DNA from: a virus
Reading direction: 5' to 3' (one strand)
DNA: 64,000 bases
Virus genome (UHGV): UHGV-0120889
Part shown: positions 17,356 through 61,949 of the stretch, in pieces
Layout: the number at the start of each line of letters is the position of its first letter
Position numbering within the stretch: position 1 is the first letter of the stretch
The notes under the pieces: generated by a model
What the model saw: the letters and a program-made list of their open reading frames with translations, nothing else
Told to the model about the DNA's origin: nothing
The model's database searches: none
Program-made: the position numbers and the translations under genes

Positions 17356-17366
17356 TATTTATTATT

Positions 17367-17441: not shown

Positions 17442-17442
17442 A

Positions 17443-17518
17443 TGGTGCTGATGGCAGGACTTGAACCTGCAACCTATTGATTACAAATCAATTGCACTAC
17501 CAATTGTGCTACATCAGC
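17443..17518 (-). tRNA. tRNA-Thr (anticodon UGU)
   Basis: Acceptor GCTGATG/CATCAGC, D-arm GCAC..GTGC, anticodon stem ATTGA/TCAAT loop UUUGUAA, T-loop TTCAAGT, CCA. Confidence 0.85.
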
Positions 17519-17524
17519 AAAAAA

Positions 17525-17623
17525 GGTGCTAGGTGATGGAATCGAACCACCTATGTATTCAACGACTACCTCGTCTATTTTCAGGATTAAAAATCCTCGC
17601 CCTTGCCAAAGGGCTTACCTAGC
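17525..17623 (-). tRNA. atypical tRNA-like gene (possible anticodon UUU; ~30-nt extra arm)
   Basis: Acceptor GCTAGGT/ACCTAGC, D-arm GCCC..GGGC, T-arm GGTGG-TTCGATT-CCATC present, but 99 nt long with oversized variable region and no encoded terminal A. Confidence 0.3.
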
Positions 17624-17721
17624 TCAGTATGTTGACCATGTTGCTAGTCGGCGATGACGACTGTAACATTTGATAATCCGGTTCTGCTTCCGGCTTTCGC
17701 TTAATTACAAGGTCAACAATA

Positions 17722-17812
17722 TGGCTGAGGGTAATGGAATCGAACCATCATCGAGTCATCCTCAACGGGACGGTTTTCAAGACCGCTTGAGCACCATTGC
17801 TCCCTACCCTCA
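17722..17812 (-). tRNA. tRNA-Ser (anticodon UGA), type II
   Basis: Anticodon arm GCGGT-CUUGAAA-ACCGT, long variable arm, T-loop TTCGATT, acceptor TGAGGGT/ACCCTCA, CCA. Confidence 0.75.
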
Positions 17813-17926
17813 TTTATAAACAATACTGATAATGACACTGATTTTCGAGCAGTTAGTGACTAGTATAAACGACGATAAATATCAATGCCATTATCTGTAT
17901 GATTTATGCATTTAAAACTATAAATT

Positions 17927-18013
17927 TGGTGGGGAGTGGTGGAGTCGAACCACCCGAGTCGTAATGACAATAGATTTACAGTCTACACCGCTACCTCTAC
18001 GGGATAACTCCCC
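17927..18013 (-). tRNA. tRNA-Tyr (anticodon GUA), type II
   Basis: Anticodon loop CUGUAAA and variable arm TGTCATTACGACTCG closely resemble bacterial tRNA-Tyr; acceptor GGGGAGT/ACTCCCC, CCA. Confidence 0.85.
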
Positions 18014-18017
18014 AATT

Positions 18018-18092
18018 TGGCACCCCGTACTGGACTCGAACCAGTGTCAACGGCTTAGAAGGCCGCTGCTTTATCCACTAAGCTAACAGGGC
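18018..18092 (-). tRNA. tRNA-Arg (anticodon UCU)
   Basis: D-arm GCTT..AAGC, anticodon arm GCGGC-CUUCUAA-GCCGT, T-arm ACTGG-TTCGAGT-CCAGT, CCA. Confidence 0.8.
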
Positions 18093-26925: not shown

Positions 26926-27396
26926 ATGAAACTTGATAAAAATGTTCAACGAAAAGCTTTCTTGGATATGATCGCATATTCGGAAGGAACAGATAATGGT
27001 AGACAACCTACCAAGGATCGGGGGTACGATGTCATAGTCGGCGGCAAGCTGTTCAGCGATTACAGCAAGCATCCAGGTGTTTACGTTAAGCTAAATGCTA
27101 AACTTACCTCCTCCGCTGCTGGTCGTTACCAGGTTTTGGAGAAGTTTGCTAAACACTACATGAAACAGCTAGGATTACCAGATTTTGGCCCTGCCAGTCA
27201 GGACAAGATTGCGTTGCAACTGATCCGTGAGTGCAAGGCTCTCGCCGACATTGACGAAGGGCGTATCCACGAAGCTATCCGCAAATGCCGTTCCCGCTGG
27301 GCTTCGTTACCCGGCGCTGGATATGGTCAGCATGAACAGAAGATCGAGAAGTTGATCGAGGTGTTTAAAAAGGCAGGCGGCATTGTCCTGGATTGA
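26926..27396 (+). CDS. endolysin, lambda R-type lytic transglycosylase
   Basis: Near-identical motif string to lambda R: QRKAFLDM, SEGTDNGRQ, GYDVIVGG, GRYQ, WASLPGAGYGQ. Confidence 0.85.
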   Translation: MKLDKNVQRKAFLDMIAYSEGTDNGRQPTKDRGYDVIVGGKLFSDYSKHPGVYVKLNAKLTSSAAGRYQVLEKFAKHYMKQLGLPDFGPASQDKIALQLIRECKALADIDEGRIHEAIRKCRSRWASLPGAGYGQHEQKIEKLIEVFKKAGGIVLD

Positions 27397-27459
27397 TCAT
27401 TGACATAACCACACGGACGTGGTATTGTTACCTCATAAAATGTTATGGAGTGTTTAACC

Positions 27460-27666
27460 ATGAAAGATTTTCTGTTGGCAATTTTGTTCATGGCAGCATG
27501 TCTGGCCTGTGGTGTCGTGTTTGCAGGTGAAACAGCGTATCTTGTCGATGTGTATCGGGACAATGGTAAACGTATTTGCCTTTATGAGACAAGCCAAGGT
27601 GAGCTCTACGAGCTTGTGAAACAAGGCGAGGCAGGTTCCTGCCCTCGCACCCATTTCTTTGAATAA
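27460..27666 (+). CDS. small secreted/lipoprotein-like protein (68 aa)
   Basis: ATG 27460 with GGAG RBS; N-terminal hydrophobic signal-like segment with Cys (LFMAACLACGVVFAG). Confidence 0.4.
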   Translation: MKDFLLAILFMAACLACGVVFAGETAYLVDVYRDNGKRICLYETSQGELYELVKQGEAGSCPRTHFFE

Positions 27667-31438: not shown

Positions 31439-31598
31439 CTGGAAAGGTGTTGTTGCAGATCGCTGCGTTACTGAGCCTAATTTATGGTTTGGCTCTACAG
31501 AGTATCATAAAGAAGAGCAATGGTTGATGCGTGCCTTCGATGTAGACAAGGGCGAATATCGTGACTTCGCTTTAAAAGACATTCTTCAGTTTTACTAA
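31377..31598 (+). CDS. hypothetical protein (73 aa)
   Basis: ORF track; overlaps 3' end of previous gene in another frame. Confidence 0.3.
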   Translation: MGMKKVFNPCDSVLIRMKYRNWKGVVADRCVTEPNLWFGSTEYHKEEQWLMRAFDVDKGEYRDFALKDILQFY

Positions 31599-43926: not shown

Positions 43927-43989
43927 TTCTTGACAAAAGCCACAAGAATGTGGCATATTATTGACACACAGTGAGCTAGGAGGTGCAGT

Positions 43990-44106
43990 ATGTCATCAGG
44001 TATTTATAAAATTTGCAAGTGCGGCTGTAGTTGTAATCTTCGTTGGTGCAAGGCACTAGACGATTTTATTTGGCATTGCCCTAAATGTGATGCGGAGTAT
44101 CTATGA
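43990..44106 (+). CDS. small Cys-rich zinc-ribbon-like protein (38 aa)
   Basis: AGGAGG RBS 6 nt upstream; CKCGCSC...WHCPKCD; stop overlaps nrdG start. Confidence 0.45.
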   Translation: MSSGIYKICKCGCSCNLRWCKALDDFIWHCPKCDAEYL

Positions 44107-49023: not shown

Positions 49024-49257
49024 ATGAAAGTTAAATTTCTTACAGATTTAGGGTACCCTTCCTTGGTTGACTGTGTTGGTAAAATTGTGGAAGCAAAACG
49101 GCTATCTGCAAACGAGAATGTTGTCCTGGTTAAAGGGAAGGATTTACTAGCTGCAGGTGCAGAGTCTGGCAGGATCTCTCCTGATTATATGTATTACCTA
49201 TCTTTAAGTAATCTGCCAGAGCGAGGCGGTAAAGGCCTTGAAGTTGTGGAGGAGTGA
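49024..49257 (+). CDS. small acidic protein, paralog family member
   Basis: MKVKFLTD N-terminus and acidic C-terminus GLEVVEE shared with other family members. Confidence 0.45.
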   Translation: MKVKFLTDLGYPSLVDCVGKIVEAKRLSANENVVLVKGKDLLAAGAESGRISPDYMYYLSLSNLPERGGKGLEVVEE

Positions 49258-49787
49258 CAGGTATGCTTCTGATTAACTGGGAAGACCTCTATGGGGACAA
49301 AGACCCTGTTGCGTTTGTTGATCGTAGGTGGAGATACACTGAAGAACAACTGGCGGCAAAAAATTTAACTGCAAAACGCAGAAAGATCATCCAGTGCAAG
49401 TACAAATACGCACAGTTTGCTGCAAAAGTGTCTCCACAAATCGAGAGCTTTGTGCTTAAATTGTATGACGAGTACCTCAAATTCAAATTGGATTTTGTGC
49501 AGGTGTACCGTGCACAGGTACGACCAGATACCAACATATGTAGATGGAAGGTTGTTTGTGACGGTAAAGATTTGCCGCTCAGCTTGACAATTGAGTGGCG
49601 TTATGGGTATCATGAGTGTGGTCTGTATGATATTTGGGATGTCATTGTAGATCCTGCTAAGCACCTGAACACAGAGGAGCTGGAATATATCAATAAGATT
49701 ATTCTTGATATGTTTTTCAGCTACACCCGTGAAAACTCTGGGAAAGAACGGGATAATTTTCTTGACACCCTCAGCGACCATTTGTAG
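49254..49787 (+). CDS. hypothetical protein (177 aa)
   Basis: ORF track. Confidence 0.45.
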   Translation: MTGMLLINWEDLYGDKDPVAFVDRRWRYTEEQLAAKNLTAKRRKIIQCKYKYAQFAAKVSPQIESFVLKLYDEYLKFKLDFVQVYRAQVRPDTNICRWKVVCDGKDLPLSLTIEWRYGYHECGLYDIWDVIVDPAKHLNTEELEYINKIILDMFFSYTRENSGKERDNFLDTLSDHL

Positions 49788-49817: not shown

Positions 49818-50045
49818 ATGAGTATAAATGTTGTGCTAATAGGTTACCTGGTAATATCCGTTATAACAGCGGTATTCTTGACAGGTATATGCATCGTGTC
49901 CAGACGAAGGGTGAAGTTTGATGATTTTATCACCATCATCACTGCTGCGCCTTTTTGGCCTGTTGTTATCTTCATCGTAATAATGTGCCTAGTTGATTAC
50001 TACAAGAATATCCGGAAGGAGAGTAGGGATGGAGACCACACCTAA
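49818..50045 (+). CDS. small membrane protein (two predicted TM helices)
   Basis: Hydrophobic stretches VVLIGYLVISVITAVFLTGICIV and IITAAPFWPVVIFIVIMCLV. Confidence 0.45.
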   Translation: MSINVVLIGYLVISVITAVFLTGICIVSRRRVKFDDFITIITAAPFWPVVIFIVIMCLVDYYKNIRKESRDGDHT

Positions 50046-50181
50046 AACTGTTTATACTGTTCTTAAAGAGATTGCGTTCTACGCAGATCTTAGCCAGGCA
50101 CCTTTATGGGAAAAGAGCATGTATTTAAAATGGTGCGTTAATTTAGGGAGACCTTCCAGTGTTTCAAGCCATGTTTATTGA
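50029..50181 (+). CDS. hypothetical small protein
   Basis: ATG 50029 with GGAAGGAG RBS; overlaps previous gene by 17 nt. Confidence 0.35.
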   Translation: METTPKTVYTVLKEIAFYADLSQAPLWEKSMYLKWCVNLGRPSSVSSHVY

Positions 50182-50278
50182 GATGCTATCTGGGGTATTG
50201 TTACTGGTAGCCATCTTAGGTGGTGCAGTTCTGATGTATAACTATCTTGAAAAAGGAGACAGCAATGGCAAAAAATAA
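50171..50278 (+). CDS. micro-ORF encoding hydrophobic peptide (35 aa)
   Basis: MFIEMLSGVLLLVAILGGAVLMYNYL; no clear RBS. Confidence 0.3.
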   Translation: MFIEMLSGVLLLVAILGGAVLMYNYLEKGDSNGKK

Positions 50279-50450
50279 ATCTTTAGAGCAGGCTGAAAAC
50301 CTTCTCCACGAGCTGGTAAAGGAGTGGAAAGTTGAATACTCAGATTTTAATGCACGAGAGGGTGAAGATTATTGGCCTACGGAGCGCTCAGAGGGCGAAT
50401 GGTATCAAGATTTTATAGAGTGGTTATATCAGACGTGCGATGAGGGGTGA
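50265..50450 (+). CDS. hypothetical protein
   Basis: ATG 50265 with AAGGAG RBS. Confidence 0.45.
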   Translation: MAKNKSLEQAENLLHELVKEWKVEYSDFNAREGEDYWPTERSEGEWYQDFIEWLYQTCDEG

Positions 50451-50908
50451 CGATGTTTGTTAAATATGTAAAAACGTGCCTCAACAGTCTTGGCAGAGAG
50501 CATTGGTACACCTTACTTGAAAAAGGAGAAATTTTAACAAAATCTGGAAAGATAACTTTGATACCCTTGGACGATAAAGACCCGTCACTCCTTGTCATAG
50601 ATGATTACGTTACAGGTGTGTCGTACGAGGTCTCTGTGGAGAGGTTAATACGCAGAGCTGGCGGCCCTTATGACCGAAGAGAGTATATTTTCGATTCTGT
50701 TACAGAGAAGGAAGATCCGTCTCTAATGTTCAGGATGGTAATCAGGGATATGAAATCATCTATAAATAGGATCGTAAAGGACATTAAGGAGCCTTTTAGG
50801 GTAAAAGTTAAGAAGTTTTTTGATTCTAAGATTAACATACTTGCCGTTGTGCTAGGCGTAATTCAACTTCTGTTAATTTTGCACTATCTTGAACTGTTGT
50901 TTAAGTAG
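50447..50908 (+). CDS. hypothetical protein with C-terminal TM segment
   Basis: ORF track; C-terminal NILAVVLGVIQLLLILHYL. Confidence 0.45.
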   Translation: MTMFVKYVKTCLNSLGREHWYTLLEKGEILTKSGKITLIPLDDKDPSLLVIDDYVTGVSYEVSVERLIRRAGGPYDRREYIFDSVTEKEDPSLMFRMVIRDMKSSINRIVKDIKEPFRVKVKKFFDSKINILAVVLGVIQLLLILHYLELLFK

Positions 50909-50968
50909 TGTGCAATAAGGCACAAAGGATGTGCCATAACTAAATAAACTAAGAAAGAGGTAGAGAGA

Positions 50969-51316
50969 ATGCCAAAGATTAAATCGATATTAATGTGGGT
51001 AGCTGTTGTAGCTTTTGTAGGATACTGGACTTGGGAAACTGAATTAAAAGATATTGGATATACTAGTTTTGAGAGCAAGGCGTGCATTGGTATAACCGAT
51101 GCGTTCAGGCAAAATGCTATGGATCACGAATGTGTTGATGCAGATATAGATGAGAAACTGTCTAAGGACAAAGATTTTTACCATGGGCATGCTTTGCTTG
51201 ATAGTGGTGATACTGTAGAGTTCTGGTCGTGGTTCCGTGAAGATGGAACAATAAAAACAGCAGTAAAGATCTCTAACAAAGAGTTAATGCTGTTGCAGCA
51301 GAAGGAGGCTCAATGA
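50969..51316 (+). CDS. hypothetical protein with N-terminal TM/signal segment
   Basis: AGAGG RBS; N-terminal ILMWVAVVAFVGYW. Confidence 0.45.
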   Translation: MPKIKSILMWVAVVAFVGYWTWETELKDIGYTSFESKACIGITDAFRQNAMDHECVDADIDEKLSKDKDFYHGHALLDSGDTVEFWSWFREDGTIKTAVKISNKELMLLQQKEAQ

Positions 51317-51600
51317 TCTGGATATCCTATGCTGATGGCACCATGCTGTATACTGCAGGTACCAGATATGAAGTTCAGGAGAACGATAAAAAATTTATCG
51401 TAAGAACATTTGACAAGGACGACAACCTTTTGCTAGAATTGACTTACAAGGTTGGAGAGGTATCCAATATCCAATTGGATTGTGGTCATAAAGATAATCC
51501 ACTCAAAAAACCTGGAATAGGCAAGGCTTCAGAAGAACGTTTGTCTCGTATTGCAGAAAGCGTTTCTACACAAAAATCTAAGAAGGGGACTAGAAAATGA
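51313..51600 (+). CDS. hypothetical protein
   Basis: ORF track; coupled overlap. Confidence 0.4.
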   Translation: MIWISYADGTMLYTAGTRYEVQENDKKFIVRTFDKDDNLLLELTYKVGEVSNIQLDCGHKDNPLKKPGIGKASEERLSRIAESVSTQKSKKGTRK

Positions 51601-51791
51601 AAAACTTACGTTTTAACACTTATTACTACAACACATTGAATGATTTGTACTATATTGTTCGAAGTAAAAGTCCTGAAACAGTCCTATTCTGCCGTGAACC
51701 TTTCAAAGGGGAGGAAGTAGAGTCTGAGATGAATGTTAGCCAAATCACCTCTTTGTTGCTCTCAGGCGCAATGGAAGAAGCAATATTCTAA
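51597..51791 (+). CDS. hypothetical protein
   Basis: ORF track; coupled overlap. Confidence 0.4.
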   Translation: MKNLRFNTYYYNTLNDLYYIVRSKSPETVLFCREPFKGEEVESEMNVSQITSLLLSGAMEEAIF

Positions 51792-51809
51792 ACCGGGCGG
51801 GAGGGTTTT

Positions 51810-51995
51810 ATGAAGCACTATTGCCTGTCTGGTAGAATGGGTGCAGATTGTGATTGGGTTTTCTTAAAACTTGTCAGCATTCGAGAGTTCATCCCAGAGG
51901 AAGAGCAAGAAAGCGAGCTGATGTCATGGATCAACCATTATGGTAACACTTTTCGACATGTTAAGGTAGAAGAGTTGCCAAGCGAGGCTGATTGA
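51810..51995 (+). CDS. hypothetical protein
   Basis: ORF track. Confidence 0.4.
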   Translation: MKHYCLSGRMGADCDWVFLKLVSIREFIPEEEQESELMSWINHYGNTFRHVKVEELPSEAD

Positions 51996-51997
51996 CT

Positions 51998-52087
51998 ATG
52001 ATTGCATCAATATTAACGTTTATGGGTGGCGTGGCATTCGGATTCATTGTTTGCCTGTTTATAGTGATTATGTCTATGCGAGGCTGA
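51998..52087 (+). CDS. micro-ORF encoding hydrophobic peptide (29 aa)
   Basis: MIASILTFMGGVAFGFIVCLFIVIMSMRG; fills gap between genes. Confidence 0.35.
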   Translation: MIASILTFMGGVAFGFIVCLFIVIMSMRG

Positions 52088-52090
52088 ATT

Positions 52091-52387
52091 ATGAAACTTT
52101 TTGAGTGGTTTAAAAAGTTTAAATATAAAGCTGTAGCCATCGTGCCGTGGTCAATTCAGTGGGTTGATGAAGGTGGTCTACCAATACCTGGTGACAAAGA
52201 TACTGGGTACTGGATTATGATGGAGAACGGGTTTGGAAAGCGAAAGTATACGTGCACAAACTCTACTCGATCTGCACTTAATAGAGTGCCTGGTTACAAA
52301 CTTATGGTTGTGTGGAAAATGTCAGGCGTCCCTCCAGCCAATGCTCAATTTCTTACTGACAATCCTACCACGGTAGAGGAAGATTGA
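52091..52387 (+). CDS. hypothetical protein
   Basis: ORF track. Confidence 0.4.
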   Translation: MKLFEWFKKFKYKAVAIVPWSIQWVDEGGLPIPGDKDTGYWIMMENGFGKRKYTCTNSTRSALNRVPGYKLMVVWKMSGVPPANAQFLTDNPTTVEED

Positions 52388-52671
52388 TAATGAAAAAGAT
52401 TAACAGTAGTGAAGTCGAGTTTAAACTTGTCGGAAAAGGCACTTACTGGGAAGTTCGTCAAAAGGTATATTTGTTCGGTCTTATTCCTTACTGGTCTAAA
52501 TTCTACTGGGGAGCTAACGAGTGGGGAAGATACGCCACCAAATCAATGGCACTTATTGGTATAGCAGAGTACATTGCAGCCAGAGATAGGGTTGGAGACA
52601 CTTATTACTATACTGCGGACGATATTCGTAACAGTGTTTACGTCCCACAACCACCTGATAGAGACCGTTGA
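52384..52671 (+). CDS. hypothetical protein
   Basis: ORF track. Confidence 0.4.
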   Translation: MIMKKINSSEVEFKLVGKGTYWEVRQKVYLFGLIPYWSKFYWGANEWGRYATKSMALIGIAEYIAARDRVGDTYYYTADDIRNSVYVPQPPDRDR

Positions 52672-52882
52672 TGAAAGTTAAAGTTTTAGATTCAAGCTTC
52701 TATATTGGTCAGGAGCCCTTAGTGGGGAAGTGTTTACTGCTGTCCCTAACGAAGATTACCCCGACCTTTTAAAAATAAAAGGAGCAGACCTGATCACCGC
52801 TGGTGCACCTGAATATTATTTCGGGGAAGAGTCCTATTATACCTTTGGGGTAGGGTCAGATGCAGATATTGTAGAGCTGTGA
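52671..52882 (+). pseudogene. frameshifted member of the small acidic protein family (or programmed -1 frameshift)
   Basis: 33-codon ORF MKVKVLDSSFYIGQEP... stops at 52770; -1 frame continues KIKGADLITAGAPEYYFGEESYYTFGVGSDADIVEL with family-type C-terminus; junction in TTTTAAAAATAAAA run. Confidence 0.4.
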
Positions 52883-52894
52883 TGGGTAACCGTT

Positions 52895-53293
52895 GTGAAA
52901 AATAAACTGTTCAAAGTTACAATGAAAATTCGCGGAGCTTGGAGCGTAAAGCAAGGGCGTATTCCAGAATTTGAGAAAGACTTCTACGTAGTCTCCACCT
53001 CGGAGGAGGCTGCATGCTGGCAAGCTGGCTATGCCTATGCAAGAACCTGGTACGAAGGATACCAGACTGGGGGCTATGACGGAGAAATTATCAGCAAGGG
53101 TGTAGAAGAAATTAATGTGTTGACAAGTGAAAAAGTTTTTGTTATAGTGCATCCAGATTCCAGAGTGAAGCATTACTGGAATGCCAGAACAAAAACTTGG
53201 ACACCGTTTGCAGATTCTGCTACGCCACTTTTAAACCAGAAAGCTCTTGACTCTGCCCCAAGTTATGGGGTTGTTGAAGAAAAGCTAAACTGA
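52895..53293 (+). CDS. hypothetical protein, paralog of 55100..55495
   Basis: Shared C-terminal motif HP.S...YW.....WTP....AT.L with 55100..55495. Confidence 0.45.
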   Translation: MKNKLFKVTMKIRGAWSVKQGRIPEFEKDFYVVSTSEEAACWQAGYAYARTWYEGYQTGGYDGEIISKGVEEINVLTSEKVFVIVHPDSRVKHYWNARTKTWTPFADSATPLLNQKALDSAPSYGVVEEKLN

Positions 53294-53310
53294 AACAGTG
53301 AGGTGCCACT

Positions 53311-53601
53311 ATGATGGATTTAGTTCTGAATATTGATAACGCAGGAGAGCTTAAAGACGATGGTGTAACAAGCATGGACAAACCCTGCTCTGCCGAGGTT
53401 GACTCAAAATGGACCTACAAGTTTGACGGAGAGATCTTCGCAAATGATGAGAAGGTTGTAGATGCTGCAGCCATTTTGAACGCTTTAGGGTACGACCCTG
53501 TGAATTCTTTGATCAAGGATCCTGTTGAGTTTGCAGAGTATGTTCGAAAAATGGCAGATCTTGCTGTGGATATTTTAAAAACTATCGATAACAAGCTGTA
53601 A
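53311..53601 (+). CDS. hypothetical acidic protein
   Basis: ORF track; AGGTG RBS. Confidence 0.4.
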   Translation: MMDLVLNIDNAGELKDDGVTSMDKPCSAEVDSKWTYKFDGEIFANDEKVVDAAAILNALGYDPVNSLIKDPVEFAEYVRKMADLAVDILKTIDNKL

Positions 53602-53607
53602 AAACTG

Positions 53608-53636
53608 TTGACACAACGCTTCAGATTTAGTATCAT
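53608..53636 (+). promoter_or_regulatory. sigma70-type promoter
   Basis: TTGACA (53608) - 17 bp - TATCAT (53631). Confidence 0.55.
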
Positions 53637-53683
53637 TGTTTTCAAAGAGGGTTTGGTTCCCTCTTCTTTAAAAGGAACACGTT

Positions 53684-54001
53684 ATGCAAATTGAAATCAC
53701 TGGCAACGTAGAAATCACTGAAGGTATGGTGTCTTTCATTTCCCACAAAATGTCTAAGCTGGAGCGTTTGCACCCCTCTGCCAACTATGCACGTGTGAGT
53801 GTAAAAGTTGAAAATGATCACCAGGAAGTTATGGCGTTCATTTTTGACAATTCCGGAAAAGAAGTTATTGCCAAAGCTAAAGGTAGCGATGCTTACGAGG
53901 CAACTGACCGTATGGTAGATGTTGCAGCACGTCAGCTGGCTAAATGTGGTGGAAAGAAAGGTAAGGGGAAAGGCAAAGTAAAGATTGACTTTGTAGAATG
54001 A
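53684..54001 (+). CDS. ribosome hibernation promoting factor / RaiA (YfiA) homologue
   Basis: MQIEITGNVEITEGMVSFISHKMSKLE...AKGSDAYEATDRMVDVAARQLAK matches HPF/YfiA family pattern (ITG..EIT....KL....D.Y.A.D....RQL.K). Confidence 0.7.
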   Translation: MQIEITGNVEITEGMVSFISHKMSKLERLHPSANYARVSVKVENDHQEVMAFIFDNSGKEVIAKAKGSDAYEATDRMVDVAARQLAKCGGKKGKGKGKVKIDFVE

Positions 54002-54138
54002 GGTGCTACAATGAGCGTGATTAAGAAATTAGTCCCAAATGTAGAGATTGCATGCTTTGAAATTATGTTTGCAATCGCAGTTGTAGTTAATGTGTTAGGT
54101 TACGGCTATTAATATCAAATAATTGAGGAGACCTCTAA

Positions 54139-54408
54139 ATGAAAATTAAATTATTCAAAACTGAGCTGGCAGACAAAAACTGTGGACTGGTTGAAGGCAT
54201 GATTGTTGAAGCACAACCAGTGGACTATATGAAGGTGGTTCGTGATGCCCTGGGTGAAGGTTTTGATCTGATGGAGCCAGCTCTGCGAGAAGATGTTATC
54301 GAGATGGCTAAAAAGCACACACCTGAGGGTTTGGTGGTGTTTGTTGCACCTGGTAATGGAGAAGAGTTGATTGTAACTCCTGATGTGTATGAGATTGTAG
54401 AGGAATAA
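54139..54408 (+). CDS. small acidic protein, paralog family member
   Basis: MKIKLFKT N-terminus; C-terminus TPDVYEIVEE. Confidence 0.45.
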   Translation: MKIKLFKTELADKNCGLVEGMIVEAQPVDYMKVVRDALGEGFDLMEPALREDVIEMAKKHTPEGLVVFVAPGNGEELIVTPDVYEIVEE

Positions 54409-54499
54409 TCCTGCTTGGATTAGCATACTTCCTCGCTAAGGAAGATTTGTAATTATTTGTGGGAAAGGAATCCCAATCTCTTACCAGAGGTGATACTAT

Positions 54500-54763
54500 A
54501 TGATTGTTTATTTTAAAACTTCAGGTGGATACCCTGATTCTCAAAGCTTGATCGGAAAAACGTGCACAGCATACTCACCTCTTGATGAGGAGGTAAGTGA
54601 TATTCTACGAAATATGTATCGGATTGACCCCCAAGAAGCTTTTGATCAAAACCTTGTATTTGTCAAGGGCTCAGACATGAAGTCTTTGGGAGCATTCCCT
54701 GAAGCAGATGATGATGCCGTTTATTCGTTCATGACTCCTTTTGAAGCTATGGTTGTTGGGTGA
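54500..54763 (+). CDS. hypothetical small protein
   Basis: ORF track. Confidence 0.4.
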   Translation: MIVYFKTSGGYPDSQSLIGKTCTAYSPLDEEVSDILRNMYRIDPQEAFDQNLVFVKGSDMKSLGAFPEADDDAVYSFMTPFEAMVVG

Positions 54764-54767
54764 TAAT

Positions 54768-55100
54768 ATGAAAGTACGCTTTATTGGTGAAACAATTCCT
54801 GTGCATCTCCGGTCTCCTGAGGATTCTGCAGATCTTGCATCTCAAAAGGCGAGAGGTTATGATAAGAAAGTAACCTCAACTGATGTAGTGCTTGAGGCTA
54901 CTAGTCTACCTGACCCTGCTGCATTCTTTAATCATTATGGGTACTATTTCAGCAATCTGATGAATATCGGTGAGCTTGTGTTTATTAGTGGTGGAGAGAT
55001 TGTTAGCAAGCTTGGCGGCGATCCGGATGTCTTTCATGAAACCTGTCCTTTTGCATTTGTGGTAGGTTCAGATGTGGAAGTTATTGAGGAGGTGCGGTAA
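54768..55100 (+). CDS. small acidic protein, paralog family member
   Basis: MKVRFIGE N-terminus at internal ATG 54768; C-terminus SDVEVIEEVR. Confidence 0.4.
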   Translation: MKVRFIGETIPVHLRSPEDSADLASQKARGYDKKVTSTDVVLEATSLPDPAAFFNHYGYYFSNLMNIGELVFISGGEIVSKLGGDPDVFHETCPFAFVVGSDVEVIEEVR

Positions 55101-55495
55101 TGGTAAGCCTATACCGTGTTGAGTATAGCTCAGATACTGTATACAACGTAAGAAGCAAAGATCGCAGCGACAGAGTGCAAGAAATGTATGTTCTTGCCGA
55201 CAGTCCGTTATCTGCAGCGTTCAAGGCAGGGGCTCTTGCATCTCGTTGGAAATTTGAAGGCGGATCTTTCTATGAAGAAACCCTTGAAGATTCTGTTGTT
55301 ATTTCTTCTGTAGAGGTTTCAGATGACTACGAAGGGAAAAAGTTCGTAATGCGGCACCCACACAGCAACATTGCGTACTACTGGGATGTTCTGAACAACG
55401 AGTGGACCCCAGATCTTCAGAAGGCTACTGTGCTAACACCGTTTTTGGCAGATAAGTTCCCACCAGAAGGTAATTTATCCGCACTGTTTCAGTAA
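55100..55495 (+). CDS. hypothetical protein, paralog of 52895..53293
   Basis: Shared RHPHSNIAYYWDVLNNEWTP...KATVLTPFL motif block. Confidence 0.45.
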   Translation: MVSLYRVEYSSDTVYNVRSKDRSDRVQEMYVLADSPLSAAFKAGALASRWKFEGGSFYEETLEDSVVISSVEVSDDYEGKKFVMRHPHSNIAYYWDVLNNEWTPDLQKATVLTPFLADKFPPEGNLSALFQ

Positions 55496-55513
55496 TTTTC
55501 TTGCACACAGGTG

Positions 55514-55544
55514 TTGACAACGCCAACCCTGTGTGAAATAATAC
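55514..55544 (+). promoter_or_regulatory. sigma70-type promoter
   Basis: TTGACA (55514) followed 18-19 bp later by ATAATA/TAATAC. Confidence 0.45.
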
Positions 55545-55574
55545 CTTCATCTTAACAAGACAGGAGACCGATTG

Positions 55575-55832
55575 ATGAAGATTAAATTGAAAAACCTTGA
55601 AACGGCAGAGATTCAGGACGGTGTTGATTTCCGTTCTAAAGATGGTGACATCTTAGAGGTAAATATTCCAACCTACGAGCTGATTAAAGGTTTTGGCAAC
55701 GTTCCGGAAGAGGATATTACAGAAATTCTTATGATGTTGATTCTTGACGGAACTGTGTTTGTAGGTGAAGGTGAGAACGCTATTGCAATCCCAGGCCATT
55801 TTTATGAAGTAGTTGACGAAGAGGTGCTGTAA
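55575..55832 (+). CDS. small acidic protein, paralog family member
   Basis: ATG 55575 with GGAGA RBS; MKIKLKN N-terminus; C-terminus FYEVVDEEVL. Confidence 0.45.
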   Translation: MKIKLKNLETAEIQDGVDFRSKDGDILEVNIPTYELIKGFGNVPEEDITEILMMLILDGTVFVGEGENAIAIPGHFYEVVDEEVL

Positions 55833-56183
55833 ATGAAAGTAGAAATTACTGGTTTTGATGTTAATGTGGTTCCGGAAGATATTTTAGCTAAACTTCCGGA
55901 AGGTTTTGGTAACGGTGTTGTGGTGGATGCTGTTCCTCCTACTAAAGACATTCTGCTGCAGTATGGTGTAGCAGAGGAAGATGTCGATAAAGTTCTTACA
56001 ATGATGGCAATCGATCGTGTTGTCGTTGTTAAAGGTCTCGATAATTTTGAGAGTGATCCACTGATTATTCGTGGAGATGACTACAAAATCATCGATAATG
56101 AAGGCCAAGAGTTCTATGAGCCTTGTGCAGAAGATATTCTTAACTTATTACTGGAAGCAGGCACCGAAGAGGAGGACGAATAA
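55833..56183 (+). CDS. small acidic protein (MKVEITG N-terminus)
   Basis: ORF track; acidic C-terminus EEEDE. Confidence 0.4.
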   Translation: MKVEITGFDVNVVPEDILAKLPEGFGNGVVVDAVPPTKDILLQYGVAEEDVDKVLTMMAIDRVVVVKGLDNFESDPLIIRGDDYKIIDNEGQEFYEPCAEDILNLLLEAGTEEEDE

Positions 56184-56512
56184 TGAAGATTGACCCGTTA
56201 CTGAAGGCTCGTGCAGAAAAAGCGTACACCATTAAGTTGACCAACTTGGTTCCTACTTGTCATCCGGATGTAGGTTGGCCCGAAGGTTTGGTGGAGGGAA
56301 CTGTAACAGCTGCATACCTTCCTAACATCAAATACCTCATGGAAATCTTGGAGCTGGATGAGGAAACGGCAGAAGAGTTCCAGTTGGACATGAAACAAAG
56401 TGGGACTCTGGTTATTCACGGGTGGTACAATACTAAAGATGTAGAAGACCCTCTGGTAACTTCTAATCTGGCATATGAAATCTTAGGGCCTTTGAACCTG
56501 GAGGAAGACTAA
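56183..56512 (+). CDS. small acidic protein
   Basis: ORF track; coupled overlaps on both sides. Confidence 0.4.
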   Translation: MKIDPLLKARAEKAYTIKLTNLVPTCHPDVGWPEGLVEGTVTAAYLPNIKYLMEILELDEETAEEFQLDMKQSGTLVIHGWYNTKDVEDPLVTSNLAYEILGPLNLEED

Positions 56513-56799
56513 TGAAAGATCTGGTTAAGATTAAGATTAAAGATACCAATGGAGAACTCAGCCATTTTGGAATTAATGATGGTGACGAGCTGATCGCACA
56601 CCTGCCTACCAAGGAGGTTGTAAGCAAAGCAGTTGCCGGAGAAGAAGCTGCAATGCAGGCTGCAGGTGTGGATGAAAACTATGTAGCTATGTGCATGTGC
56701 CGAGATCAGGTTGTTCTGTATAAAGCGTATCGACCAAACGGAGCCACGGAGTGGCTTGTATTCCGACCCGAAGGATATGAAATCTTAGAGGCACTATGA
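56512..56799 (+). CDS. small acidic protein, paralog family member
   Basis: MKDLVKIKIKD N-terminus; C-terminus PEGYEILEAL. Confidence 0.4.
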   Translation: MKDLVKIKIKDTNGELSHFGINDGDELIAHLPTKEVVSKAVAGEEAAMQAAGVDENYVAMCMCRDQVVLYKAYRPNGATEWLVFRPEGYEILEAL

Positions 56800-56879
56800 T
56801 AAATCTTGCCAAGGTTGCAACGGCACTGTTAATTATTTGCTGGTCAGTAACCTTAACACTGTGTCTTGTATTTCAGTGA
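56796..56879 (+). CDS. micro-ORF encoding hydrophobic peptide (27 aa)
   Basis: MINLAKVATALLIICWSVTLTLCLVFQ; ATG overlaps previous stop (ATGA). Confidence 0.3.
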   Translation: MINLAKVATALLIICWSVTLTLCLVFQ

Positions 56880-56888
56880 GGTGCTTGT

Positions 56889-57152
56889 ATGAACATCCTG
56901 ATGTGGGTTATAGCAGTGGCGTTTGTTGCATGTTTTTGCTGCTGGGTTGCGGTGAGGATTTCTGTAGCTACCCTTCGGAAGTTGGGGTTCTCAGAATGGG
57001 ATATTAATATCCTTTCTTTTCGCAATGAAACAATCTCAGCCGCCCTGCTTTGTAAGAAATTTAAGTGGGAACCTTGTGAGGTCATGAGCTATCTAAGAAC
57101 AGGCGATATCCCTGAAAGATTTAAAAAAGTTCTTGACGGCAAGGATAAATGA
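56889..57152 (+). CDS. small membrane protein (N-terminal TM)
   Basis: GAGGTG RBS; N-terminal ILMWVIAVAFVACFCCWVAV. Confidence 0.45.
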   Translation: MNILMWVIAVAFVACFCCWVAVRISVATLRKLGFSEWDINILSFRNETISAALLCKKFKWEPCEVMSYLRTGDIPERFKKVLDGKDK

Positions 57153-57180
57153 CAGTATAGTGACTAACAAGAGGTGAGGG

Positions 57181-57321
57181 GTGACTGATTTTACTGAAGC
57201 TTTAATGATGGCCTTGTCTGTTTTAGCGCTATCGGTGTGTTTTGGGGCGTTATTCACATCTCTGGTTAAAGTTTTACATACAGTATTATTACCCAAGGAG
57301 CGCAGTAATGACGAAGATTGA
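57181..57321 (+). CDS. micro-ORF encoding hydrophobic peptide (46 aa; GTG start)
   Basis: GAGGTGAGGG RBS; ALMMALSVLALSVCFGALFTSLV; 3' end overlaps next gene. Confidence 0.3.
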   Translation: MTDFTEALMMALSVLALSVCFGALFTSLVKVLHTVLLPKERSNDED

Positions 57322-57559
57322 CTTGAATGCTGGTGATCATGTTGTTGTCAAATGCGTTGGAGATTATCTTGGATTCACAATCGGCAATACTTACGAGGCG
57401 GTAGTGGCGAAGGTTTATCATGATAAAGTCCTCAGTCTTGTATTTGACTGTGATGATGACGGAGATGACCGTTACGTCTGTGAGGTGCTGGCTCGTGACG
57501 ATAGTGAAGACCAGAAATTCCTGGTTATTGAACTGAACGGTATTTTTGTAGAACGTTAA
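57308..57559 (+). CDS. hypothetical protein (83 aa)
   Basis: ATG 57308 with AAGGAG RBS. Confidence 0.45.
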   Translation: MTKIDLNAGDHVVVKCVGDYLGFTIGNTYEAVVAKVYHDKVLSLVFDCDDDGDDRYVCEVLARDDSEDQKFLVIELNGIFVER

Positions 57560-57587
57560 TTTAAAACAACATAAGGAGACTCTTACT

Positions 57588-57893
57588 ATGGCTAAATCTA
57601 AAGTTGAACTGTTCACCTCTCTTCCTTCTGACACTGCAGAACGTGATCGCCTTCGCAAAACAATTGAAGAACTGGTGGAACTCCAGCTTCAGATTAAAGA
57701 TTTGAAAGATGCCATCAAGGATATCATTCTTGTTGAGAAGCAGGATCATCTGTATTCTCCTAAATTCATCAAATCTTTGGTGGCTACAGAGTTTGATATC
57801 CGCTACGAAGCTGAAAAACGTCGCGCTAAGATTGAAGAAGAGGTTGAGCACATGTCTGAGGCAGACATTCTGTTCAAACGCTCTGTAGAATAA
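57588..57893 (+). CDS. hypothetical coiled-coil protein
   Basis: AAGGAGA RBS; helical charged sequence. Confidence 0.45.
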   Translation: MAKSKVELFTSLPSDTAERDRLRKTIEELVELQLQIKDLKDAIKDIILVEKQDHLYSPKFIKSLVATEFDIRYEAEKRRAKIEEEVEHMSEADILFKRSVE

Positions 57894-57894
57894 T

Positions 57895-58266
57895 ATGGCA
57901 GAGGGGCCCCTCTTTCACTATTTGCAAAAGGAACCAGCTATGAGAATGCCAATCACTGTGAAAGAGCTAAATGAACGTGATGCAGGTGGTCTATGGCCTG
58001 CACGAAAAATCCGCTGCGTCTATATGAAAGAGAATCTTGAACATCTTGATCAACAGATCAAGGTCGGTGATATTTTCGAGGTCTTCTATTCCAATCGTCG
58101 CAACTGGGAAACCATTCAGCCTTCTGGTTTTGTTCTTGCCAAACTTGACACTGGAGAAGTGATTATTCCTGGGTTGGATATTGTCTTCGAAATTATCCAG
58201 GAGTGGGATCCGGATAAGATTAGATATGAAGAGTTATTCGGTGAAGGTATTATCAAACCTGTGTGA
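57895..58266 (+). CDS. hypothetical protein (start may be 57940)
   Basis: ORF track. Confidence 0.4.
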   Translation: MAEGPLFHYLQKEPAMRMPITVKELNERDAGGLWPARKIRCVYMKENLEHLDQQIKVGDIFEVFYSNRRNWETIQPSGFVLAKLDTGEVIIPGLDIVFEIIQEWDPDKIRYEELFGEGIIKPV

Positions 58267-58574
58267 GGTGGATTATGTCTACAAAGGCGGCTAAATACTC
58301 CTATATGCCATCAACCTCTGCAGAGGTAGACTTTAGTTTCGATGTGTTTCCACTGTTTGAGGTGGTTCTGGCATACCCAACAATACTATCTACTCCTGAA
58401 TCACTTGTGCCTGTTAAGTTGCAGAACGCTATGCATTCCATGCACTACAACAACAAATGTAGGCACAGATGGTGTCAGGACGAGGAAAAAGATTTGGATA
58501 GTTTGAGAGATTTTGACAGTCACCTTTTGACACCTTTCAGCTACTCCAACCTTGATAAGCCCTCGTGGGTATAG
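58263..58574 (+). CDS. hypothetical protein
   Basis: ORF track. Confidence 0.4.
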   Translation: MRWIMSTKAAKYSYMPSTSAEVDFSFDVFPLFEVVLAYPTILSTPESLVPVKLQNAMHSMHYNNKCRHRWCQDEEKDLDSLRDFDSHLLTPFSYSNLDKPSWV

Positions 58575-58598
58575 CAAAATATCAAATTTAAGACACCT

Positions 58599-58627
58599 AG
58601 GACGCTCTGTGGCGTCCTTTTCTTTAT
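58599..58627 (+). terminator. rho-independent terminator ending the plus-strand gene block
   Basis: AGGACGC-TCTGTG-GCGTCCT hairpin followed by TTTCTTTATC. Confidence 0.65.
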
Positions 58628-58787
58628 CTGGTGCACGATTGCATACCTTGGGTAGTTAATCTCATTACAGAGCGTTTAAGAGCTCCCTACAAACAACTCC
58701 ATATTTCGAGCGTAGCGAGAACGCACGTCCGTTTTGACCCAAATCACCATACGCTCGGATTTTAACCAAACCCTCGCGGCGTTTCTG

Positions 58788-58816
58788 TTGACACATTGCC
58801 GATCCAGTGATAGTAT
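58788..58816 (+). promoter_or_regulatory. sigma70-type promoter
   Basis: TTGACA (58788) - 17 bp - TAGTAT (58811). Confidence 0.5.
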
Positions 58817-58848
58817 CCACACATAGTTTGTAGAATATGGAGTACACA

Positions 58849-58938
58849 ATGAGAACATTGTCCGAAGTTTTAGTGGTGATCCTGATGATCATTACGTCCA
58901 TAGTGGCTGTTGCCGGAATACTCACGGGTGGAACATGA
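58849..58938 (+). CDS. micro-ORF encoding hydrophobic peptide (29 aa)
   Basis: MRTLSEVLVVILMIITSIVAVAGILTGGT; stop overlaps next ATG (ATGA). Confidence 0.35.
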   Translation: MRTLSEVLVVILMIITSIVAVAGILTGGT

Positions 58939-59147
58939 TAAACACACATGCATCTGAAGAGACATCCAAAGGAGTGACTATATGTCCCTTGACTGAGCCA
59001 GTGAAAGAGGAAAACTTCGATTCTGAAGATTCTCCATCTTCGCTCCAGGTAGATCCTGAGGTTGATGACCTAACGTGGGAGGACATCGTAGATATCTGGT
59101 TCTCTATTATGCCTGAGCACGAAGAGTTCAGGGGCGGCAGACTATGA
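58935..59147 (+). CDS. hypothetical acidic protein (70 aa)
   Basis: ORF track. Confidence 0.4.
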   Translation: MINTHASEETSKGVTICPLTEPVKEENFDSEDSPSSLQVDPEVDDLTWEDIVDIWFSIMPEHEEFRGGRL

Positions 59148-59186: not shown

Positions 59187-60376
59187 CCTGAAGAGGCAAA
59201 CGTGCATAATTCCAGCGTATTGGAACGCATAAAACCCTGTTCACACTCTCATTTTCCAGAGGAGATTTCATGAAGATAGAAATATTTGGTGGAGCTGACA
59301 ACACTCGTGGCCTGATTTACCTTGAATTCGAGGAATCATACCTGCCAGAGGTGTTAAATATAGACTCTGTTGCTGAGGCTTTGGGAGTAAACCCTAAAGA
59401 ACTCCACTCTTGTGCTGAGATCGATGGTTGGGAAGAGACCATGAACATTGATTTCAGTGAAGTAGAGGATGAACCGCTGGACTGACACACAATTAGCTGC
59501 CCGGCTAAAGTGCTGGAAGCACCTATAACACATCTTTCAACTAAATTTCCTACCACCACAATCACTTACCTCCCACACATGACTGTTTGCTTGTTTAGTG
59601 AGCAGTCATGCCTTGACATTCTTGCCTATCTTGATAAAATTAAGTTCTTCTCTTTTCTTTTACCGAGTAATTCGGGTTTTCTGTTCTCTTCGGTTTGAAG
59701 GGGTATGGAGATACACCTGAGTGAACAGGGTGAACAACCGAACCTTTGGCTATGGCATTAGCATGGCGAAGCGGACGGGTGACGAAAGAGGGGCCGGAGG
59801 ACACCAGTCACTGCCATATGATATATGGGTGATAACCTGAAGAGTCTGAATAAGTGTTTAAGTACCAGTCAGAGGAAAAGGTGAATGGTAGCCGAAGGGG
59901 GAGGGGGGTTTCTTGTATCTTTAATTTGTATATTATGTATACACTTGTAAACCAACACCATCTGAATTTGTTTACCACAGAAAGCGGATAGAGACAAATA
60001 TTACCTATTAAACTTGAATTATTTATAGAAAATACCACAACACCACTTAAGTATTTGATTTTACACATAAATCCTACAGATATTCACCCTCCATATTTAA
60101 CATACTTGTAACATATTCCATACTCTACCTGTCTGATCAATTTCCCCAACTACACCCACCATATTTTCCCTGTCTGTACCACCCCTGACCCGCCGGGAGT
60201 CCCGTCATATCTGGCTTTCCAGCAAATATCACACCCACAAATATCATTGCCTGAAGAGGGTTTCATCCCATAATACATGCCTTACCTGAAGAGCGCTTCA
60301 TACACCACGTAAATTTTTTAATTGACCCCCTCCCCGCCGCCGGAGAGGTTGTCTTTTCCCACACAGACCTGAAGAG
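59187..60376. repeat. five dispersed copies of 9-mer CCTGAAGAG in an ORF-poor region
   Basis: Exact copies at 59187, 59836, 60250, 60285, 60368 (all same orientation). Confidence 0.8.
59270..59485 (+). CDS. small acidic protein (MKIEIFGG N-terminus)
   Basis: GGAG RBS; N-terminus like family members. Confidence 0.4.
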   Translation: MKIEIFGGADNTRGLIYLEFEESYLPEVLNIDSVAEALGVNPKELHSCAEIDGWEETMNIDFSEVEDEPLD

Positions 60377-60903
60377 TCAGTCAGAAATATCTGAATGGAC
60401 CCAATTCTGCCCTGTCATGAGCGGTAGCGACTGGAGTGCTGCCAGGCGGACGAAATGGGAATACTTCTCATTCTTATAATAATTCTCAAATATCGAGGCA
60501 GTGAGGAAAATTAATAGGTGAGGCCGTTCACACAGTGGCACAACATTTGCAACCTATCTTGTGGGGGTGAATGAGAATACCTATCATTGTGAGAATAGTT
60601 ATCATTACGGGCAATTTAACATAATACCCATTATGCGCACCACTGGCGATCCATACAGGGATTGATAACATGAGTTACAGTTTACGCATATAACAATCAT
60701 ATTTCTTACTATTTGTGTGGGATATAGTTAGCAGCCGATAGATTAGATATTGACCTGTGGACTTCCAACCATCTAGACGTCTAAACGCCCACACAACAAG
60801 GATTATACATACATTACTGAATGTAAACAGGGCCGCAAAAATGCTACCATACCAGTTTGTAAATTTTTCATGCAGCACTTGACAAAGAGGAGGAAAACTT
60901 GTC

Positions 60904-61028
60904 TGACATAATGTGACCTAACTGACACAACATGACACTTTTACACACCTATTAGTTTACACACTGGATTGTTTACATTCCTGATTGTTCACATGCTAAC
61001 CATTTACATGATTGACTGTTTACACACC
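60904..61028. repeat. iteron-like arrays: TGACA x4 then TTTACA(C/T) x6 at ~16-bp spacing
   Basis: TGACA at 60904-60937; (T)GTTTACA-type units starting 60940, 60955, 60972, 60988, 61003, 61019. Confidence 0.7.
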
Positions 61029-61036
61029 GATAATCA

Positions 61037-61287
61037 GCCATGCCATTCGTTTGCATGACAATAATTATACATGACAATAATCGCACTGATTATAATTAGC
61101 ATGACATAATATAAAAGCAGGGCAACTATTAGCAGATCTATAGTTGCCTTGCTTGTCATGTCATGATTAACTAAATACAAGGCAACTATGATCTGATTAA
61201 TAGTTTGCAGACAAACTATCACGGGGGTGATGGTTACTGCTTTTATATTATGTCGCGACTCCGTCGCGCCATGCCATTCGTTTGCAT
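61037..61287. repeat. 251-bp element bounded by perfect 20-bp direct repeats with nested inverted repeats
   Basis: GCCATGCCATTCGTTTGCAT at 61037..61056 and 61268..61287; inner 15-bp inverted repeat 61106..61120 / 61237..61251; palindromes GGCAACTAT-N10-ATAGTTGCC (61121..61148) and 61181..61208. Confidence 0.8.
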
Positions 61288-61949
61288 AGTTGCCTTATTG
61301 TTACAGGTAAAATAATTGTATTGTTAATTATTTCTTATCTTTCTATTAGTCATCTAATGATTCCAGTTAGTATAGTAACGTACAGTAAACATTAGACGAC
61401 TAAAGATTTCTCTGCTTATGATAACCTAACGTGACAATTTCAGACTGTTTACGAAAAATGTTGACACCTGAGCTGATTTATGTTATGCAGTTTACACGAA
61501 TAATTATTTTATGCAGGTATTGACTATTCCGTTATTCTATGGTTGGAATAAATACTTAGCAGACTATAGAATGGTGAGCGTACGTAAATTCTGAGATCTG
61601 TCGGCTATAGTTATACTCGATTTTTCACGTAGAACACGCTTTTTGGTTTGTGTAAGTGTATGACTTATAAAGATTTTTAGTTGTTGACAAGATATTGGAG
61701 ATGTGCATCAGATTAAATTTTGTGCAATAGCTACATTACGTGCACTTTTGGAAGAAAAAACGTGTAAAAATGGCCCTGCTACCACACAATGAAAGATTAT
61801 GCAATAGTTATTTTATATGTATATTTGTACAGTGTGTGGGATTAATGGCTAGTCAATTATTCCACTTGCCAGGTAGGGCCGTTTATGGTAGGAGAAGAGC
61901 AGACAAAAAGAAAGGGGCCTTTAAGCCCCTTGATAATTCAATTAAGAAA

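Follow-up and report, generated by a model that had tools for sequence, protein, structure and literature searches.

The window analyzed in the present study is a whole 64,000-nt stretch of the UHGV virus genome UHGV-0120889. Six very small open reading frames (ORFs) on its plus strand, located between positions 50159 and 58938, encode hydrophobic peptides of 27-46 amino acids. We refer to these ORFs as micro-genes A, B, X, C, D, and E, in the order of their positions. Genes are oriented on the minus strand up to ~22 kb of the window and on the plus strand from 22.1 to ~59.5 kb. The 49.8-59.2 kb segment matched 122 phage records at 90-99% identity, all of them from Vequintavirus (rV5-like coliphages), and the best-matching record was PMBT16 (97.8%). 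The window represents an rV5-like coliphage of this genus. In other Vequintavirinae genera, the regulator gene at 57588-57893 was the only part of the block matched in a sensitive blastn search; therefore, in terms of DNA sequence, the block is genus-specific. The rV5 paper (Kropinski et al., 2013; PMC3606486) described this part as "88 mainly small ORFs".

Micro-gene A (50159-50278; rV5 gp131) encodes 39 amino acids from a GTG codon, with an internal ATG at 50171, and its peptide consists of one transmembrane (TM) helix followed by the charged tail EKGDSNGKK. Micro-gene B (51998-52087; 29 amino acids) encodes little other than a TM helix with a GxxxG motif. Micro-gene X (54011-54112; rV5 gp145; 33 amino acids) lies directly 3' of the gene for the ribosome hibernation factor (HPF). 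Micro-gene C (56796-56879) encodes 27 amino acids, micro-gene D (57181-57321; rV5 gp156) encodes 46 amino acids with one TM helix and an acidic tail, and micro-gene E (58849-58938) encodes 29 amino acids with one TM helix and a GxxxG motif. The best 17-residue Kyte-Doolittle means were 2.55 (A), 2.71 (B), 2.50 (X), 2.52 (C), 2.35 (D), and 2.97 (E). The original prediction, which was made from the sequence of the window without database searches, flagged five tiny ORFs as single-TM-like peptides. All five exist and are strongly hydrophobic (2.35-2.97), and X is a sixth ORF of the same type that was overlooked. A single helix was predicted in all six peptides. Five of the peptides (A, B, C, D, and E) had negative (favorable) approximate sums of membrane-insertion energy on a scale from the literature, while the sum for X was marginal. 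None of the six peptides is a paralogue of another one or of a TM segment in a neighboring protein.

Hydrophobicity of this degree was not a general property of small ORFs in this block. Among plus-strand ORFs of 25-50 amino acids other than the micro-genes between 22.1 and 59.6 kb, none out of 104 had a 17-residue mean of at least 2.3, while 1 out of 173 did so on the minus strand. Using curated gene boundaries for 49.0-59.5 kb, hydrophobic peptides were encoded by six of the ten small ORFs that fill intergenic slots and by none of the 24 embedded in other genes (Fisher p = 1.6e-4). The remaining four slot ORFs, which are not hydrophobic, sit in promoter or terminator spacers. The pattern of hydrophobic slot ORFs exceeds chance. 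Two further hydrophobic gap ORFs outside the flagged range, 31447-31527 and 43961-44059, had weak Shine-Dalgarno (SD) sequences and unfavorable insertion energies, and the frame of the latter was broken in rV5; these two are probably chance ORFs.

The claim that the micro-ORFs occupy intergenic slots, several with ATGA-type coupling, held. The ATG of C overlaps the stop codon of the upstream gene (ATGA), and the stop codon of E overlaps the start of the next gene in the same manner. A overlaps the next gene by 14 nt, as does D. B lies 2 nt 3' of ORF137 and 3 nt 5' of ORF138, and X starts 9 nt past the stop codon of the HPF gene. The HPF-to-X and C-to-gp155 junctions have the common motif TGAGGTGCT, in which a stop codon is embedded in the SD sequence. 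Tight junctions of this type, with ATGA overlaps and stop codons within SD sequences, are also expected if the ORFs are functionless, as translational-coupling spacers or chance ORFs, and this alternative is considered below with the evidence for selection and turnover.

At all six starts, a ribosome-binding site lies at the appropriate spacing, and its pairing with the anti-SD sequence was as strong as that of real genes. The energies were -8.9 (A), -7.6 (B), -6.9 (X), -5.8 (C), -7.1 (D), and -5.9 (E) kcal/mol, and thus ranged between -5.8 and -8.9 kcal/mol; the median was -6.6 in a set of 56 real genes and -2.8 at 1,104 internal ATG/GTG codons. The start sites originally assigned were correct for E (ATG 58849), but not for A (ATG 50171). 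Since the anti-SD signal was found at GTG 50159 (-8.9 kcal/mol) rather than at ATG 50171 (+0.5 kcal/mol), and rV5 ORF131 has the same start, the start of A is most likely GTG 50159. An upstream ATG at 58837 was examined as the start of E and rejected: it has no SD sequence and is missing in L014, the most divergent relative, and the four codons between it and ATG 58849 vary freely among relatives. The start codon of D is GTG in the window and ATG in many relatives. We noted AGG at this position in SYGMH1, which could mean that D is no longer expressed, that translation begins at an internal Met, or that the sequence contains an error.

Upstream of E, a terminator-like hairpin with a T-run (58599-58618, plus strand; eight pairs, five of them GC) is the best-scoring terminator of the region and closes the preceding transcription unit. 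It is followed on the same strand by a sigma-70-like promoter (58788-58816; TTGACA-N17-TAGTAT), the hexamers of which are kept in relatives including L014, and E is the first ORF behind this promoter.

The reading frames were compared with those of 12 GenBank genomes (88-100% local identity) and the metagenomic relatives L014 and L015 (82-87%). All six frames were open wherever the DNA was present, in up to 19 genomes with 82-99% nucleotide identity. In the 12 GenBank relatives, substitutions were conservative; the six ORFs pooled had 64 synonymous and 46 non-synonymous substitutions, giving a ratio of non-synonymous to synonymous rates (dN/dS, or omega) of 0.23 (p = 2e-14), compared with 1.19 and 1.08 in the alternative frames. 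When the metagenomic relatives were added and all six frames were scored, the predicted frame had an omega of 0.23 (p = 2.5e-22) and the other two same-strand frames had values of 0.81 and 1.39. The predicted frame was the sole frame open throughout this enlarged set. Against L014, dN/dS was 0.04 for A, 0.14 for X, 0.16 for E, 0.23 for C, and 0.25 for D, and the values of neighboring genes were mostly 0.02-0.15. Over the different comparisons, the ranges were 0.04-0.08 for A, 0.23-0.34 for C, 0.13-0.35 for D, and 0.16-0.36 for E; the value for B was 0.23. Conservation of the micro-ORFs in related phages, which had been proposed as a check, was thus found: the frames are intact down to ~82% nucleotide identity and are under purifying selection. 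Judging from these sequence comparisons, the SD signals, and the prevalence described below, we consider it very probable that the micro-genes are real, translated genes.

Two existing annotations at E were incompatible with this result. In 7 out of 14 relatives, interruptions were found in the minus-strand coding sequence of 94 amino acids that covers E (I29_147; 58665-58949). The other annotation, the 306-nt ORF162 of rV5 and LL12, in which the downstream gene is extended across E, had a frame omega of 0.95 and is closed by a stop codon in the window. Therefore, the minus-strand sequence and the N-terminal extension of ORF162 appear to be spurious annotations.

Constraint was not uniform along the peptides. 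The TM helices of A, X, and D were nearly invariant across the 19 genomes, with V/I/A/L/M swaps only, while the tails varied. The helices of C and E tolerated more changes, C the most. The near-invariance of the A, X, and D helices suggests sequence-specific helix packing. In the divergent clade, the slot of C is filled by a hydrophobic ORF of 26 amino acids that is 37-42% identical to C and has the same start and stop coupling.

The micro-genes also differ in how stably they are held. B is bounded by a direct repeat of 10 nt, GCGAGGCTGA, which contains an SD sequence and a stop codon (left copy, 51982-51991; right copy, 52078-52087; plus strand). B is absent in Aya, MaxBurger, and the divergent-clade relatives L014, L018, and L019. 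In Aya, the segment between the two copies is precisely absent, and ORF137 and ORF138 are joined by an ATGA overlap; genomes that lack B, such as Aya, hold exactly one copy of GCGAGGCTGA. This looks like the gain or loss of a cassette via microhomology at the junction. A donor sequence for B was sought in the window, but none was found. In B9-1, most of E is replaced, while its last ~30 nt, with the ribosome-binding site of the next gene, are retained. Genomes that are otherwise similar carry different E alleles in a mosaic pattern. We observed that, within the same divergent clade, the E allele of L018 (19279-19365) is 96.6% identical to the window and that of L019 (19273-19347) is 72% identical, a difference that indicates local mosaic exchange. 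B and E are, thus, naturally dispensable, being lost or replaced in some isolates.

A relic of a seventh TM micro-gene was identified from the alignment with L014 and L018. It occupies 54411-54452 (plus strand) in the gap at 54409-54499 after the gp146 homologue. Its start codon has changed from ATG to CTG and a 78-nt block encoding the helix has been deleted in frame, while the stop codon is retained. The intact counterparts, of 39 amino acids, are located at 7154-7273 in L014 and 14770-14889 in L018.

These results bear on the possibility that the ORFs are functionless. The dispensability of B and E and the poor conservation of C in the divergent clade are consistent with spacers or chance ORFs. 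However, selection acts on the amino acid sequences, the A, X, and D helices barely change, and the enrichment of hydrophobic ORFs in the slots is significant. The diverged C keeps its hydrophobic character and length. Furthermore, the flanking genes couple directly where B is absent and, thus, no spacer is needed. We regard this explanation as very improbable.

The prevalence of the micro-genes was assessed by tblastn searches of 50,697 phage records with each of the six peptides as the query. The number of positive records was 118 each for A, X, C, and D, 114 for E, and ~91 for B; all were from Vequintavirus, and no credible match outside this genus was obtained for any of the six in these records. 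A collection of 5.8 billion proteins contained D in 11 clusters only, each at least 78% identical. Four peptides had full-length matches to genus-only PHROG families that carry no functional label, namely, A (phrog_15251), X (phrog_15151), D (phrog_16755), and E (phrog_34195), while B had only a partial, weak match and C had none.

The suggestion that such ORFs fall below most annotation cutoffs was only partly supported. None of the 13 annotated records that we inspected contained a call for C. However, the original rV5 record already annotates A (ORF131), X (ORF145), and D (ORF156), and B and E are listed as hypothetical proteins in the BASEL and MiataMamis records. Table S3 of the rV5 paper gives gp131 (39 amino acids), gp145 (33 amino acids), and gp156 (46 amino acids) as "membrane protein, 1 TMD" according to TMHMM and Phobius, and contains four further TM proteins of 39-46 amino acids in the adjacent small-gene arm (PMC3606486). 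These rV5 products and the four PHROG families represent the same genes as A, X, and D (and E), at 94-100% identity; the evidence in these sources is limited to TM prediction. No separate family exists for B, and C is missing from both the inspected records and PHROGs. The micro-genes are essentially already catalogued, and the present study confirms and slightly extends this observation. The details that are new here are the B cassette with its 10-nt repeat, the relic of a seventh micro-gene, and the near-invariant helices of A, X, and D.

Pfam and NCBIfam profiles at E <= 1 gave no meaningful match for the six peptides and no holin, Hol-Tox, or type I toxin family. The best holin score was that of TIGR01598 to E, with an E-value of 0.13 and 12.5 bits, where the cut-off is 39.7. 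A scan of 49-60 kb with Rfam revealed no known RNA family.

The micro-proteins may be membrane-damaging peptides similar to type I toxins, which would depolarize or permeabilize the inner membrane and thereby cause host shut-off or a timed death. They resemble TisB, Ibs, ShoB, and DinQ-type peptides in size and composition, and, together with Hok and Ldr, these toxins share a length of 19-50 amino acids and extreme hydrophobicity with them. However, the profile searches linked none of the peptides to a toxin family, and no antisense RNA partner was detected in the region. The micro-genes are embedded in operons and efficiently coupled through strong SD sequences, rather than tightly repressed, and six depolarizing peptides expressed from constitutive-type promoters are difficult to reconcile with a productive infection. 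We consider this explanation to be improbable.

A role in lysis (holin/antiholin-like) was one of the functions originally suggested. One or more of the micro-proteins could supply the holin that is missing or could act in a pinholin-like or antiholin manner, and A is the most plausible candidate. The endolysin is gp89 (26926-27396; phrog_90, E = 5e-56), which lies ~23 kb upstream of the micro-genes. The spanins are encoded near the terminase genes on the opposite strand, more than 30 kb from the micro-genes. The statement that no canonical holin is evident next to the endolysin agrees with the literature. The rV5 paper proposed gp129 as the holin, separated from the lysin as in T4; gp129 was the sole product with two TM domains, and its C-terminus is basic (PMC3606486). 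In the window, gp129 is encoded at 49818-50045 (plus strand; 75 amino acids with two TM helices); its distribution is confined to the genus, and no source lists it under the name of holin. According to the literature, the holin of the genus has not been positively identified, and gp129 is a proposal. A is located two genes past gp129, A and D each combine one TM helix with a charged C-terminal tail, as in lambda S105/S107, S21 68/71, and T4 T/RI, and A, C, D, and X occur throughout the genus.

Other features do not fit a lysis protein. Holins are typically 60 amino acids or more, and the micro-proteins are about half the size of the known holins, pinholins, and antiholins or less. Each has one helix in 27-46 amino acids, outside the description of holins as proteins with two or three TM domains and a charged C-terminus (PMC3606486), and the charged tail is present in A and D only. 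No holin profile matched, and the micro-genes are linked to neither the endolysin nor the spanins and have no lysis-cassette context. B (91/118) and E (114/118) are not universal, and some natural isolates have lost them. Relatives do not retain the apparent dual start of E, and the promoters are of the sigma-70 type, unlike the late-type motif described for rV5. The holin/antiholin interpretation of the original prediction was, therefore, not supported, and we regard a lysis function as quite improbable, slightly more so than a toxin-like one.

We made additional observations on the genes around gp129 and the endolysin. The neighbor of gp129, gp128 (49263-49787), is named "putative glycosidase" in BASEL records. 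A lysis-like module of gp128 and gp129 was considered and rejected: gp128 has no Pfam or PDB match, and its PHROG has no assigned function. Homologues of gp128 comprised one close cluster and a few remote sequences, and a single-sequence AlphaFold model had a pLDDT of 44.7, which was too low for use. Residue 87 of gp128 is Arg, matching "glyco R87*" of Bas51, a viable mutation that abolishes Retron-Asa1 defense (PMC12548924). Thus, gp128 is probably dispensable and a retron trigger, or R87* is polar on downstream genes. Directly 3' of the endolysin, rV5 gp90 (27445-27666; 68 amino acids) has an N-terminal hydrophobic segment with cysteines (FMAAC/LAC) that is lipobox-like. Its PHROG has no functional label, and the protein could be secreted or lipid-anchored.

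The gene order raises a different possibility, namely, that the micro-proteins are dedicated subunits or assembly partners of phage membrane proteins, C and D with gp155 and A with gp129. The gp155 gene (56889-57152, plus strand) encodes 87 amino acids with an N-terminal TM segment (Kyte-Doolittle mean of 2.23 over residues 1-19). C and D immediately flank it, and these genes form a run of three consecutive bitopic membrane-protein genes; A follows two genes after the two-TM gp129. TM proteins are otherwise rare, with TM segments in 5 of the 71 larger ORFs of the block. The divergent clade has the same arrangement, there is almost no variation in the A and D helices, and KdpF or CydX in bacterial complexes provide an analogy. 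However, B, X, and E have no membrane-protein neighbor. The C helix is only 37-42% identical in the divergent clade while gp155 is 83% identical there (81-83% in L014 and L015), a poor fit with a tight, specific complex. The proposed partners are all genus-universal and, thus, co-variation is uninformative. We consider this explanation unlikely, although less so than the toxin and lysis proposals.

We favor the interpretation that A, B, X, C, D, and E are six unrelated, genus-specific genes for one-helix inner-membrane peptides of 27-46 residues that act as accessory modulators, and assign a probability of roughly 0.55 to it, largely by analogy with known systems. Each peptide would be translated from its own SD sequence within the last codons of the upstream gene, the stop codon of which is often embedded in the SD sequence, as in TGAGGTGCT. 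Because the SD sequence sits in the end of the upstream gene, translation would be coupled to that of the flanking genes, which would be carried in sigma-70-driven transcription units, with E as the first cistron behind its own promoter. The peptides may then insert into the host inner membrane and modulate their targets via helix-helix contacts. The targets may be host envelope proteins, in takeover, superinfection exclusion, or defense evasion, or neighboring phage membrane proteins. The transporter-targeting role that was originally suggested is plausible. The micro-genes would be individually gained, lost, and exchanged at gene junctions. We infer membrane insertion, early timing, and the modulator role, the timing from the sigma-70-like promoters. 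Points in favor of the interpretation are the hydrophobic cores and their enrichment in slots, the intact and selected frames, the SD pairing, the insertion energies of A, B, C, D, and E, the near-invariant helices of A, X, and D, the proximity of C and D to gp155 and of A to gp129, the published TM predictions, and the accessory behavior seen in the B indel, the E replacement, and the relic.

Several points weigh against this interpretation. The substitution counts were small for each single ORF, and the antisense frame echoed the selection signal (omega 0.31), although it contained stop codons in 27 sequences. This echo is attributable to third codon positions shared with the predicted frame; together with the few substitutions per ORF, it means that the frame assignment leans also on open-frame conservation. 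The insertion estimate for X was marginal (+2.0) because the segment contains Glu and Asn. The curated annotation of LL12 holds D alone of the six. Regarding early timing, gp133, gp137, and gp152 of the block were found in virions by mass spectrometry, and the micro-gene products are not listed in these rV5 data (PMC3606486). We searched the literature for data on translation or membrane localization, as well as for transcriptome or ribosome profiling data for Vequintavirus, and found none. Moreover, the functional class is based on analogy because no homologue has a known function and the genes occur in one genus only.

The analogy is with several groups of small membrane proteins. AcrZ, MgrB, MgtS, SgrT, KdpF, and CydX are bacterial small inner-membrane regulators that bind larger membrane proteins. 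Similar to the micro-proteins, they are shorter than 50 residues and consist of one TM helix with very short tails, and the conserved helix sequences of A, X, and D resemble the manner of these regulators. However, there is no sequence relationship between the two, and the micro-proteins are encoded by a phage. T4 Imm functions in superinfection exclusion. T4 Sp also acts in superinfection exclusion (PMC7677548). PhiNM1 Gp11, a small early membrane protein, inhibits host envelope enzymes and binds MurG and DivIC, and is a precedent for a modulator role (PMC11237401). All three are small, membrane-associated, and non-structural, and are encoded among uncharacterized small genes, as are the micro-proteins; however, Imm and Sp are larger (83-97 amino acids), and none of the three is homologous to them. 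A survey of phage small genes by Fremin et al. in Cell Reports (2022) reportedly includes small transmembrane families. That catalogue is of the same general kind (conserved, fewer than 50 codons, many with predicted TM segments) and has no specific link to the micro-genes.

A bolder form of the modulator interpretation may also be envisioned. The micro-proteins may be a changing set of unrelated one-helix proteins in the small-gene arm of rV5-like phages. Each would be tuned to bind one particular inner-membrane protein of the host and disable it, and the genes would be gained, lost, and swapped in cassettes of ~90 nt. Examples of targets would be a membrane-bound defense effector, a transporter, or a receptor-assembly factor, and the exchange would proceed through the microhomology of SD and stop sequences at gene junctions. 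Such exchange is suggested by the 10-nt repeat at B, by the micro-gene relic (54411-54452), and by the mosaicism of E. We consider this form doubtful, less likely than a partnership with phage membrane proteins.

Other features of the window were also noted. Eight small proteins, encoded at 49024-49257, 54139-54408, 54500-54763, 54741-55100, 55572-55832, 55833-56183, 56183-56512, and 56512-56799, are acidic and have similar Y/V-E-[IV]-[IV]-[DE]-E-like tails, which suggests a tandemly expanded paralogous family in the small-gene block. A region of ~2.3 kb without a long ORF (~59600-61900) has a GC content of 0.378, the minimum of the window, and corresponds to the rV5 "non-coding" region 104013-106618 between the converging small-gene arms. 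The terminase region contains a group I intron (15481-15759, minus strand; 84 bits), and six tRNA genes are clustered at 17282-18092 (minus strand); both agree with the description of rV5.

Genome annotation routinely underrepresents small membrane proteins, and a function is known for almost none of those encoded by phages. The present study is a tidy confirmation of a catalogued feature rather than a discovery, and it shows that the micro-genes turn over at gene junctions. It provides comparative evidence that six such genes are real, in a group of phages widely used for therapy and typing. Public annotations may be improved by adding C, by correcting the starts of A and E, and by removing the spurious minus-strand coding sequence and the spurious extension downstream of E. 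If any of the micro-proteins inhibited a specific host membrane protein or defense system, it would represent a compact tool or drug lead.

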